From the NCBI RefSeq assembly GCF_044647545.1, contig NZ_CP172818.1: a DNA stretch of 64,000 nt; one strand, 5' to 3'. The DNA is from Escherichia coli (lineage in GTDB: Bacteria; Pseudomonadota; Gammaproteobacteria; Enterobacterales; Enterobacteriaceae). The notes beneath the pieces are model-generated. The model was not told where the DNA came from and did no database searches. It was given only the letters and a program-made list of their open reading frames with translations. Below are positions 2,368 through 8,993 of this stretch, in pieces (the first letter of the stretch is position 1; each line of letters starts with the position of its first letter). A program made the position numbers and the translations under genes.

Positions 2368-4086
2368 TTACCTTAGCCAGTTCGTTTTCGCCAGTTCGAT
2401 CACTTCATCACCGCGTCCGCTGATGATTGCGCGCAACATATACAAGCTAAATCCTTTGGCCTGTTCAAGTTTGATCTGCGGTGGAATGGCTAACTCTTCT
2501 TTGGCTACTACCACATCCACCAACACCGGACCGTCGATGGAAAAGGCGCGTTGCAGGGCTTCATCGACTTCAGAGGCTTTTTCCACGCGAATACCCGTAA
2601 TTCCGCACGCTTCGGCAATGCGGGCAAAGTTGGTGTCGTGCAGCTCAGTACCGTCTGTCAGGTAGCCTCCGGCTTTCATCTCCATCGCCACAAAGCCCAG
2701 CACGCTGTTATTAAAGACGATAATTTTCACTGGCAATTTCATCTGCATTACTGAGAGGAAATCGCCCATCAACATACTGAAACCGCCATCGCCGCACATG
2801 GCGACCACCTGACGTTCCGGCTCGGTTGCCTGCGCACCCAGCGCCTGCGGCATGGCGTTAGCCATCGAACCGTGGTTAAACGAACCTAACAGACGACGCT
2901 TGCCGTTCATTTTCAGATAACGCGCTGCCCATACTGTCGGCGTACCAACGTCACAGGTGAAAATAGCGTCATCGGCGGCAAAATGACTAATTTGCTGCGC
3001 CAGATATTGCGGGTGAATGGCTTTCTCGCTCGGTTTAGCTAAATCGTCCAGCCCTTTGCGGGCATCGCGGTAATCTTCCAGCGCTTTATCCAGAAACTTG
3101 CGATCGGTTTTTTCTTCCACCAATGGCAGCAATGCACGCAGAGTCGACTTGATATCGCCGACCAGTGCCATATCTACCTTGCTGTGCGCACCAATGCTAG
3201 CTGGATTAATATCAATCTGAATAATTTTTGCATCGGTCGGGTAGAAAGCACGGTAGGGAAATTGCGTGCCGAGCAGCACTAACGTGTCGGCGTTCATCAT
3301 GGTATGGAAACCTGACGAGAAGCCGATTAATCCCGTCATTCCGACATCATACGGATTATCGTATTCGACATGTTCTTTACCGCGCAGGGCATGAACAATA
3401 GGCGCTTTAATTTTCCCGGCAAACTCAACTAACTCTTTATGCGCCCCCGCGCAGCCGCTGCCACACATCAGGGCGATATTGCTGGAATAACGCAGCAGTT
3501 GCGCCAGTTTGCGTAACTCTTCTTCTTCCGGCGTCACGACTGGTTGTGGCGCATGATACCAGTGCGTGGTTGCCCCTTCTGGCGCAGGTTTTAACGCCAC
3601 GTCGCCCGGTAACACGACAACGGAAACGCCACGGTTTAGCACCGCTTTGCGCATGGCAATCGCCAGCACTTGTGGGATTTGCTCCGGGCTGGAAACCAGC
3701 TCGCAATAGTGACTACATTCGCGGAATAACTCTTGTGGGTGGGTTTCCTGGAAATAGCCGCTGCCAATTTCGCTGGAGGGAATATGAGCGGCAATCGCCA
3801 GTACCGGAACGTGATTGCGGTGGCAATCGAACAGGCCGTTGATTAAGTGCAGGTTACCGGGACCGCACGATCCGGCACAGACCGCCAGTTCTCCGCTAAG
3901 TTGTGCTTCAGCGCCAGCGGCAAACGCCGCCACTTCTTCATGCCGGGTGGACATCCACTCGATGGTGCCCATGCGATTAAGACTGTCACTAAGACCGTTC
4001 AGAGAGTCGCCCGTGACTCCCCAGATGCGTTTCACTCCTGCCGATTCGAGTGTTTTGGCGATATAAGCTGCAACCGTTTGTTTCAT
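2368..4086 (-). CDS. poxB: pyruvate oxidase (ubiquinone), thiamine-diphosphate/FAD enzyme
   Basis: 572-aa ORF; TPP-enzyme architecture with GDGG motif ([10 protein letters not shown]); recognised sequence. Confidence 0.95.
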
Positions 4087-6993: not shown

Positions 6994-7893
6994 TTATGCA
7001 GAGAAAAAGGCGATGAGAATCGGCACTAACAGACTAAGAATAAAACCGTGAACAATCGCCGCCGGGACCATATCCAGCCCGCCAGTACGTTGAAGAACGG
7101 GCAGGGTGAAATCCATCGATGTGGCACCGCATAAGCCCAGTGCAGTAGAGCGGCTGCGGCGAATCAGCCCAGGGATCAACATAATAGCAATCAGCTCACG
7201 GGCCAGATCATTAAAAAACGCCGCGCTCCCGATTACCGGACCAAAAGATTCGGTCAATAAAATACCGGAAAGAGAATACCAGCCGAAACCGGAGGCCATT
7301 GCCAGCGCGGTATTGATGGGAAGATCAAGAATAAAGGCGTTAATTAAACCACCAATTAATGAACTGGCAACCACCACCACGGCGACAATCATTCCCCGGC
7401 GATTAAGGACAATCTGCTTTAAGGTCATGCCATTATTGCGCAACTGAATACCGACGAGGAAAAGTAGCAGAATTAAGGTGTATTCACTGGCTTCGGTCGC
7501 GTGTTGTAAGAAAGCCAGTCCACTCAGGCCAATGGCAAAACCAATCACTACTACGCCGCACAGTTTTAGCGACTCCAGCGCCATCGCAATACGCGATGGG
7601 AGTTTTTCTTGCTGGTGGTAGTTGCGCCACGGCAGACCGCGCTCCAGCCACATCAGGGCGGCAATATTACACAGTAAAATAACGGTAATACTGACAGCAG
7701 AATAATGCAGAATCGCCAACAGGTTACTGGCGAGGTTATCGAGAAACGCCAGACTGATACCCATAAAAAAGAGAATGAGGTAAACCATCCAACTTAATAG
7801 CTGATTAATAACTTTTAATGCAGCTTTTTGGCGAAGCGGAATGAGGTAACCCAAAATCAGGGGAACCAGAATGATTAACAGCCCAGAAAACAT
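6994..7893 (-). CDS. lysO: inner-membrane lysine exporter LysO/YbjE
   Basis: ORF 6994-7941, highly hydrophobic; start placed at MFSGLLIILVPL (299 aa) from recalled length, upstream in-frame Met possible. Confidence 0.8.
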   Translation of the reverse strand: MFSGLLIILVPLILGYLIPLRQKAALKVINQLLSWMVYLILFFMGISLAFLDNLASNLLAILHYSAVSITVILLCNIAALMWLERGLPWRNYHQQEKLPSRIAMALESLKLCGVVVIGFAIGLSGLAFLQHATEASEYTLILLLFLVGIQLRNNGMTLKQIVLNRRGMIVAVVVVASSLIGGLINAFILDLPINTALAMASGFGWYSLSGILLTESFGPVIGSAAFFNDLARELIAIMLIPGLIRRSRSTALGLCGATSMDFTLPVLQRTGGLDMVPAAIVHGFILSLLVPILIAFFSA

Positions 7894-8297
7894 GAAAACC
7901 CAGTCCTTGCAAAGATGAAGTCGAAATGCGCGATGACACACTACTGAAAGCGGAAGGACGAGTAAAGTTGCAATTAAAAGGAAATGTTATGCATCAGGAG
8001 CAGGGGATTTTTATTATGTTGCATTGTTGTGGTCTCTTCCATGTGCATTAAGCCACTGGCGAGGAGCGCAAATCGCCGATCGTTTCCTGTAGGCCGGGGC
8101 AGCCCACATAATGTGGGCTGAGGGCGCGTTTTACAGGGATCAAACTTACCGGTCGCGCGAGAAGTCCAACTTCAGCCCGAGGTTCATGTGGCTTCCTGGC
8201 CTTCGGGAACCGCTTCAGCGTATTGACGCCACCAAGACCCGTGGTTCGGTAACGTCGAAGATAAAACAACCAGGGCAGATAAAGTGCCAATGCTTAA

Positions 8298-8993
8298 TTA
8301 ATTACGTTTTTCCAGTAGAGTCCGGTAAATCAGACCACCGATAATACCGCCGACAATTGGCACCACCCAGAAGAACCACAATTGTTCTAACGCCCAGCCG
8401 CCCTGGAAGATAGCAACCGCGGTGCTGCGCGCCGGGTTAACAGAAGTGTTAGTCACCGGAATACTGATTAAGTGAATCAGGGTTAAGGCCAGACCAATAG
8501 CGATCGGCGCAAAACCTGCCGGAGCGAATTTGTCGGTTGCGCCGTGGATCACCAGCAGGAAACCTGCACTCAATACCAGTTCAACTACCAGCGCGGAAAG
8601 CATGGAATAACCGCCTGGCGAATGCTCGCCATAACCGTTAGAAGCAAAACCGCTGGCTGCCGCGTCAAAACCTGTTTTACCACTGGCAATTAAATACAGC
8701 AGCGCCGCCGCAACAATACCGCCGACAACCTGGGCAATTACGTAGCCAACGACTTCTTTTGCCGGAAAACGTCCGCCAGCCCATAAACCAATAGTGACCG
8801 CCGGGTTAAAATGACCACCAGAAATATGACCAACAGCGAAGGCCATCGTCAGAACGGTCAGACCGAATGCCAGCGCCACGCCGGCAAAACCAATGCCTAA
8901 TTCCGGGAAGCCTGCGGCCAGTACGGCACTACCACAGCCACCAAAAACAAGCCAGAAAGTACCAAAACATTCAGCTGCTAATTTTCTGAACAT
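8298..8993 (-). CDS. aqpZ: aquaporin Z water channel
   Basis: ORF 8298-8999; two NPA motifs ([14 protein letters not shown]); start at MFRKLAAE for 231 aa. Confidence 0.93.

Follow-up and report, generated by a model that had tools for sequence, protein, structure and literature searches.

What is the GC-rich, palindromic block that lies between lysO (ybjE) and aqpZ in the Escherichia coli DNA analysed here (a stretch of 64 kb, referred to below as the window)? The initial annotation left several answers standing, from a dispersed repeat to a small RNA or a leader of lysO. We find the block to be an already known element, the repeat described both as TRIP1a and as RRS-lysO, at its known site. 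The best explanation overall, to which we give a probability of roughly 85%, is that positions 8027-8262 constitute a degenerate and rearranged allele of this repeat that is without replication-risk function.

A structured block in the lysO-aqpZ spacer

The spacer is bounded by the ATG of lysO (minus strand) at 7893 and the stop codon of aqpZ (minus strand) at 8298, giving a measured length close to the 400 bp first estimated, and the flanking genes are about 99% identical to E. coli. The features of interest at this level are:

7894..8297, no strand: lysO (ybjE)-aqpZ intergenic spacer, 404 bp, delimited from ORFs and annotated homologues; chromosomal site of TRIP1a / RRS-lysO (PMC10888264, PMC11194060)
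8100..8120, plus strand: exact palindrome, hairpin H1, CAGCCCACAT-A-ATGTGGGCTG
8048..8290, minus strand: 80-codon TTG ORF from a mechanical ORF list, judged spurious
8111..8344, plus strand: 77-codon ORF overlapping the 80-codon ORF, judged spurious

The palindromic block is real and non-random. The perfect inverted repeat reported at 8100-8120 is exact and in fact slightly better than described, with 10-nt arms separated by a single nucleotide, and the surrounding 29-mer is found a single time in the window and in none of 100 shuffles. A longer imperfect palindrome had also been proposed, and here 8081-8121 pairs with 8172-8212 at 74% identity. Folding of both strands, suggested earlier as a check, turns the plus strand of 8060-8265 into one long imperfect hairpin (-84.1 kcal/mol, z = -3.2, none of 200 shuffles being as stable), while the minus strand reaches -75.9 kcal/mol (z = -2.1). 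At 57-62%, the GC content of 8050-8250 exceeds that of most of the directly adjoining 100-bp windows (36-44%).

Repeat-derived sequence extends from about 8027 to 8262. The initial annotation had placed the element at 8048-8290, which are the limits of the 80-codon ORF and not of the element, though the block it pointed to is genuine. It had also taken the two small ORFs for noise, and rightly so: they are spurious because this is non-coding repeat DNA, its variation follows base-pairing and not codons, and it carries many indels relative to an otherwise identical strain, E. coli 142.

Established families of dispersed repeats

The block was first likened to REP/PU and ERIC/IRU elements. With REP/BIME, ERIC/IRU, BoxC and transposase-mobilised MITEs it shares a dispersed, intergenic, palindromic and GC-rich character, the element occurs in either orientation at one site in different strains, and the Klebsiella copies adjoin REP-like sequences. 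The sequences themselves nevertheless fail to match. A REP consensus (GCC[GT]GATGCG[GA]CG-type unit) finds no match in the spacer even with two mismatches, and Rfam reports no naRNA4/REP there, its only match to the window spacer being a chance one to HOTAIR_3 (E = 4). ERIC/IRU is a 127-bp unit with the conserved core GTGACTGGGGTGAGCG, and this core has no match in the spacer at up to three mismatches. Nor does the BoxC/PIT/TMECO motif, CCCTCNCCC-N3-6-GGGNGAGGG-N3-GGGNGAGGG (PMC4666352), match anywhere in the window; BoxC was an early guess from the GC-rich block of K-12 and N-01, and was dropped on the unmatched TMECO consensus. Even GTAGGCCGG, initially said to resemble the start of REP/PU units, is the 5' arm of stems P3/P4 of TRIP1.

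Comparison of forward and reverse alleles sets the ends of the element (ACAAAC...GCAACAA), and neither terminal inverted repeats nor a target-site duplication are recognised there; phage sequences give no match, and the E. coli copies are confined to five or six fixed loci. A phage origin was rejected on the basis of a Klebsiella-type copy, which is without a match in 50,697 phage records. Taken together, these results make membership of any of these families barely credible.

The block is TRIP1a, the replication-risk sequence of lysO

TRIP1 was first listed by Rudd (1999), and its copy TRIP1a sits in the aqpZ-ybjE spacer of K-12 (Li et al. 2024, Genes 15:236, PMC10888264). Intact TRIP1a is 266 bp long with 62-65% GC and a predicted 'double-Y' fold of about -144 kcal/mol, and it is found in 70% of 6,725 E. 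coli genomes, in forward orientation in 3,448 and in reverse in 1,255; TRIP1b-e occupy four other fixed loci, and recombination between copies leads to large inversions (PMC10888264). Pham et al. (2024, NAR 52:6392, PMC11194060) describe TRIP1 as a 'Replication Risk Sequence' (RRS). In their account RRS-lysO and RRS-dusC each measure 222 bp and lie about 650 kb from dif, with RRS-lysO located 168-389 bp upstream of lysO in K-12 (PMC11194060); the length of the intact repeat is thus given as 222-266 bp (PMC10888264, PMC11194060).

The sense strand of the RRS contains a G-quadruplex (G4), GGGGGTGCAGGGGGCGGCGG, together with extensive hairpins, and folds on the lagging-strand template once the fork unwinds, whereupon the folded RRS blocks the polymerase and a RecA/SSB-coated gap of up to 2 kb results (PMC11194060). 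The G4 blocks polymerases and is required on the lagging template for gap formation; inverted RRS copies produce no gaps, yet still complement (PMC11194060). Deletion of both RRS copies is tolerated only with compensating amplification, at least one element being conditionally essential in K-12, and the same authors caution that any fast-folding structure might block lagging-strand synthesis (PMC11194060).

Anatomy of the window allele

With four family types as query, BLAST finds TRIP1-like matches at only two places in the 64-kb window, 8070-8140 and 8172-8243. Both are the same part of TRIP1, corresponding to positions ~19-111 of the K-12 query region (305 nt, L002 2002-2306, beginning about 25 nt upstream of the published 222-bp RRS). 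Combined with alignment to other alleles, this divides the block as follows:

8027..8069, minus strand: relic of P5, the 3'-terminal stem of a reverse-oriented TRIP1 (alignment with strain 142 and N-01)
8070..8140, plus strand: forward TRIP1 5' segment (BLAST; part of the covariance-model match 8084-8209)
8141..8250, minus strand: decayed reverse TRIP1 5' half (BLAST and alignment with strain 142)

What had been compared to a single, ERIC-like palindromic unit is therefore two partial TRIP1 5' halves placed head to head. The forward segment is a well-formed member of the family, comprising the P1 5' arm AAATCGCC, the 5' arms of P2-P4, H1, and the 5' side and loop of H2 (GGGCGCGTTTTACAGGGAT), and by BLAST it is 91.8% identical to K-12 TRIP1a and 95.9% identical to a relative located between yegH and asmA. 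H1, at 8100-8120, is the first 'AYGGAY' hairpin of the family, with its loop mutated from CAUGGAUG to CAU-AAUG. The reverse half is more eroded. At 8141-8167 only a remnant of the P4 3' arm and H2 survives, H1 (8172-8194) is destroyed, the P4-P2 5' arms occupy 8195-8220, the P1 arm (8218-8227) has degenerated to GCGTATTGAC, and the 5' tail lies at 8225-8250. On the minus strand 8172-8243 is 74.7% identical to positions 19-92 of K-12 TRIP1a, reversed, and the reverse half plus the aqpZ-proximal flank (8172-8297) matches reverse-type alleles of this locus at about 84% identity. At the opposite end, the P5 relic keeps one arm, GGAGCGC at 8063-8069, the other having mutated to TTGTGGTCTC at 8027-8036, and alignment with the reverse-type alleles of N-01, A10 and strain 142 shows that the G4/GC-hairpin segment expected after P5 is deleted.

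The window element thus occupies the TRIP1 site in the aqpZ-lysO (ybjE) spacer as a fragmentary member, without full-length homology to the 222-266 bp TRIP1/RRS. The allele has lost the G4 together with the GC hairpin, H3 and the 3' arms of P1-P2. Searching the 64-kb window for the G4 motif with up to three mismatches gives no match, and a G3+ quadruplex pattern is likewise absent from the spacer. The 'double-Y' structure, in which P1-P4 surround H1 and H2 and are followed by the GC hairpin and P5, is represented by H1 and the 5' arms alone. A covariance model of the 158-position family core, built with strain 142 and one yegH-asmA copy kept out, scores intact copies at 159-182 bits, including both copies kept out, against 30.2 bits for the window (8084-8209, E = 6e-6), whose match runs over model positions 24-115 and contains a 42-nt insertion. 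Here the missing 3' arms are replaced by the inverted second copy, which mimics P3/P4.

Distribution in E. coli and other enterobacteria

The suggestion that the block might be a dispersed repeat is borne out, in that the segment has matches elsewhere in essentially all E. coli genomes, with a median of two per genome; when 5,426 complete E. coli genomes were searched with sensitive settings, all but one gave matches. None of these genomes has a match covering 80% of 8040-8297, however, so the window-type allele is represented zero times. Matches are instead part-wise, to 8070-8140 at 92-96% and to 8172-8297 at about 84%, the latter falling in the lysO-aqpZ spacer of other strains and the best of the former between yegH and asmA. 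Two diagnostic 39-40-mers of the window allele are also absent from JGI metagenome contigs. Forward K-12-type alleles number 4,029 and reverse A10-type alleles 984 among the same 5,426 genomes, in agreement with the counts of Li et al., and alignment of the spacers of K-12, N-01 and the window reveals one ~270-bp element lying in opposite orientations in K-12 and N-01, and pieces of both orientations in the window spacer.

Several further arrangements came to light. About 400 of the 5,426 E. coli genomes carry neither the K-12-type nor the A10-type allele. In E. coli SCU-123 (L005 1284-1604) an internal deletion in the same spacer joins the distal arm of the GC hairpin to the P4 region (…CCCCCTGCACCCCCGGCCTTCGGGG…). 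The yegH-asmA copy, the closest relative of the window's forward segment (96%), represents a sixth TRIP1-like locus that Li et al. (2024) do not list among their five; some E. coli carry it at full length (L006 1493-1770), and in K-12 it is 5'-truncated, with only the 3' half present (L066 ~3510-3660). Its 3' half is divergent but compensated (CCAGGGTGGTGG...CCACCCTGG; ACGTTCAC...GTGAACG).

A pattern scan of one genome per species yielded 51 loci, and 55 distinct copies of the family were analysed. All of the loci are from Enterobacteriaceae except three in MAG bins with Klebsiella- or E. coli-like sequence, and homologues occur in Klebsiella, Citrobacter, Raoultella, Kluyvera, Enterobacter and Pseudocitrobacter. 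The MAG matches (L018, L019 and L035, labelled Desulfacinum, 'Proteobacteria bacterium' and Sporobacter termitidis) might be taken for a wide taxonomic spread, but are probably bin contamination, since they combine Klebsiella- or E. coli-type TRIP1 with Klebsiella REPs and enterobacterial flanks. Klebsiella pneumoniae has about 12 TRIP1 copies per genome, including a tandem pair (L008 1066-1340 and 1503-1777), each copy preceded by a REP-like GCCGGGTGGCGGC...CCTTACCCGGCCTAC unit; this copy number is far above the two 'positionally conserved' RRS of E. coli. In one Escherichia whittamii copy (L047 ~8516-8760), about 75 nt of GC-rich sequence are inserted between the P2 3' arm and H3.

Comparison with strain 142 and origin of the allele

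The nearest genome is that of E. coli strain 142 (NZ_CP048337.1, L065), which is 99.8% identical over window positions 9000-33000. Between 1 and 14228 the two are identical except for a substitution at 7032 and the following feature:

7997..8294, no strand: patch differing from strain 142 (pairwise alignment)

Within this patch, 7997-8248 holds 47 substitutions, 9 bases present only in the window and 63 present only in strain 142; two isolated differences lie beyond it, G/A at 8284 and one extra T at 8294. In strain 142 TRIP1a is intact and in reverse orientation, scoring 180.6 bits with the covariance model. A patch of about 71% identity inside 14 kb of identity is unusual for ordinary divergence, which counts against our reading of the block.

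One way to account for it would be a sequencing or assembly artefact, the true locus being an intact reverse TRIP1a as in strain 142 that was mis-assembled into a fold-back chimera. The identity with strain 142 across 14.2 kb, broken only by the patch and one further base, is as expected under this explanation, as are the uniqueness of the allele against 5,426 genomes and its absence from metagenome contigs; the head-to-head layout looks like a fold-back, and cloned RRS has been reported as unsequenceable by standard protocols without extra heat (PMC11194060). A recent fold-back would however produce near-identical arms, and these are only 74% alike. Moreover, the forward arm resembles another paralogue, of yegH-asmA type, more closely (96%) than it does the local reverse arm (87.5%), and the differences from strain 142 reach into the AT-rich, unstructured flank at 7997-8030, where the window has AGGAGCAG in common with K-12. 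The flanks are also error-free, indicating an assembly that is otherwise of high quality. We therefore regard an artefact as improbable.

We argue instead that the patch is probably a real, old and recombined allele that was moved by a short recombination tract; its features also speak against random errors of sequencing. It reads as a natural allele on account of AGGAGCAG, which the left edge of the window keeps in common with K-12 and which is deleted in strain 142, and of the well-formed forward segment. Its most likely origin is an exchange between TRIP1 copies of opposite orientation, through recombination or gene conversion at their palindromic hairpins, with a subsequent deletion, and a short recombination tract would then have brought it into, or removed it from, an otherwise clonal background. 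A donor allele was found neither among the 5,426 E. coli genomes nor in the JGI metagenomes.

Three simpler histories were considered. A plain crossover between forward-type and reverse-type alleles is ruled out as the sole origin, as the left flank of the window bears a reverse-type P5 relic, and a recent fold-back duplication is ruled out by the dissimilarity of the arms. Decay in situ from the strain 142 allele is unlikely given that the window retains AGGAGCAG. Whatever the precise route, the window and strain 142 form a natural near-isogenic pair over 14 kb, in which RRS-lysO is destroyed in one member and intact (in reverse) in the other.

Family-wide structure and the TwoAYGGAY motif

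Across the 55 copies a structure of 63 pairs has 98.2% of its cells paired, compared with 34-47% when partners are slid. Compensatory changes affect 24 of the 63 pairs (387 cells versus 124 ± 9 in shuffles), and they fall in the closing stem P1 and in P5, in H1, in H2 (inner stem) and in the GC hairpin overlapping the G4 tract. G.U cells outnumber A.C cells by 92 to 19 in the family alignment, which suggests that one strand folds, the strand with the G4. This wobble asymmetry and covariation fit either RNA or a single-stranded lagging template. The G4 layout itself (G3-5 / G3-5 / GG / GG) is kept in all three subfamilies (A4 columns 268-314), and in the hairpin overlapping it the complementary arm covaries, with 8 compensated pairs, so the hairpin, in addition to the quadruplex or in its place, seems to be under selection.

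The Rfam family TwoAYGGAY (RF01731) aligns end to end with many TRIP1 copies in cmscan, at 27-42.7 bits. The best match, L026 6-173 (minus strand), reaches 42.7 bits (E = 3.7e-5 when searched alone), and other copies score 27-31 bits (among them L038 335-502, L045 1336-1475 and L002 2037-2176), so that no copy attains the gathering score of 43 bits. The Klebsiella and Citrobacter copies on L008-L012 have no match to RF01731, and neither does the window spacer at E <= 10. Intact family members have an AUGGAU first loop, a CA-N-GGA-Y-G second loop and a covarying P1; the first of these loops was fixed by our search pattern, the second was free. The window lacks the pair of adjacent AYGGAY-looped hairpins closed by P1, since its first loop reads AU-AAU, its second hairpin is truncated and the P1 3' arm is missing.

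Could the block then be a functional structured RNA, whether a small RNA from the aqpZ 3' UTR, a leader of lysO, or an RNA of the TwoAYGGAY class acting through GGA loops, for instance on CsrA? The covariation and G.U excess of the intact family, its recurrent near-threshold matches to TwoAYGGAY, and a window plus strand that folds better than shuffles are what such an RNA should display. The loops CACAUGGAUGUG and UACAGGGAUGU also resemble RUACARGGAUGU, the CsrA SELEX consensus. CsrA binding to TRIP1 loops is speculation on our part.

At the window locus, though, loop 1 is without GGA, hairpin 2 is truncated, the closing stems are missing, and Rfam gives no TwoAYGGAY match even at E <= 10. 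No promoter-like or terminator-like site is present in the spacer, the forward segment is antisense to both neighbouring genes, and the allele occurs in none of the 5,426 complete E. coli genomes. The CsrA table of Potts et al. (CLIP-seq and expression) has 'No' for ybjE and dusC in all four of its yes/no columns, whatever each column stands for, and aqpZ was absent from the files searched. Finally, covariation and tolerance of G.T are equally expected if it is sense-strand ssDNA that folds, as Pham et al. show. Family context bears on the leader idea in particular: the commonest setting of the 55 copies (L002-L063) is between convergent genes, and a crude ORF-based count has only 9 of 50 downstream genes co-oriented with the element (29 of 41 for upstream genes), a context that speaks against a 5' leader. 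The earlier proposals of an aqpZ 3' UTR small RNA or a lysO leader are thus left without support, the more so as the allele differs even in a near-identical strain, and we consider a functional RNA here very improbable.

As an observation on the neighbouring sequence, the K-12 allele has a strong canonical aqpZ terminator (AAAAAAAGGCCTGACATTACGCCAGGCCTT, plus strand; L002 2293-2352, against window 8251-8297), which is missing from the window and from reverse-type alleles.

For the family as a whole, by contrast with the window, the resemblance to TwoAYGGAY points to what may be a so far unreported bridge between an RNA motif of unknown function and an experimentally defined DNA replication element; among 12 papers mentioning TwoAYGGAY we found none on TRIP1 or RRS. 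We put forward tentatively, at rather less than even odds, that TRIP1/RRS is the enterobacterial branch of the 'TwoAYGGAY RNA' motif, which would be either an ssDNA gap structure or also a structured transcript. If so, an Rfam 'RNA' would be an ssDNA structure provoking replication gaps, and would then also be present in Psychromonas, Clostridiales and gut metagenomes; alternatively, the RRS would act via a structured transcript too, possibly one that binds CsrA. The window would in that case represent a naturally occurring knock-out, with strain 142 as its otherwise isogenic partner.

Function of the window copy

In the published mechanism the sense strand of an intact RRS folds fast during lagging-strand synthesis and blocks the polymerase, with a transient gap and topological relief as the outcome. 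Having lost the G4 and half of the fold, the window copy would no longer be a replication-risk sequence. As far as its sequence allows us to judge, it is most likely an inert relic with no dedicated function. The good folding of the remnant (z = -3.2, plus strand) counts against loss of function; what is left would be an imperfect palindrome of about 130 nt, able to form a hairpin or cruciform. The strain presumably relies on its dusC copy (TRIP1c), outside the window.

In itself the window is of little importance, since it holds a known repeat, decayed, at a known site, and an intact copy at the lysO site is already missing from roughly a quarter to a third of E. coli genomes. It does illustrate the instability of sites that provoke gaps, and the gap-and-RecA biology of this site would explain why it is so heavily rearranged.

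Comparison with known systems

The closest known system is TRIP1a itself, which shares the aqpZ-ybjE site with the window element and is 92% identical to it in the 5' segment; at this locus the repeat is in general forward, reverse or missing among genomes. Intact TRIP1a measures 266 bp and folds at about -144 kcal/mol; in the window, two partial 5' halves face each other head to head and fold at about -84 kcal/mol. Seen as RRS-lysO, the forward segment has the K-12 orientation, in which the sense strand is the plus strand and the lagging-strand template, but the G4 carried by RRS-lysO is absent from the window allele, and gap formation is for that reason not expected.

REP/BIME, ERIC (IRU) and BoxC (PIT/TMECO) are like TRIP1 in being intergenic, palindromic, dispersed enterobacterial repeats of variable spacers, and differ from it in sequence, unit length, copy number and fold.

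TwoAYGGAY, which in the alignment of Weinberg et al. (2010) is a multi-copy repeat in Psychromonas and includes an AGGGAC second loop (PMC2864571), has in common with the TRIP1 family, though not with the window, a long closing stem, two adjacent hairpins with AUGGAU and A-N-GGA-Y loops, an 'AG' junction and several copies per genome. TRIP1 has in addition a 3' domain of about 110 nt (G4/GC hairpin and P5), and whereas TwoAYGGAY is filed as an RNA of unknown function, the RRS has a demonstrated effect at the level of DNA.
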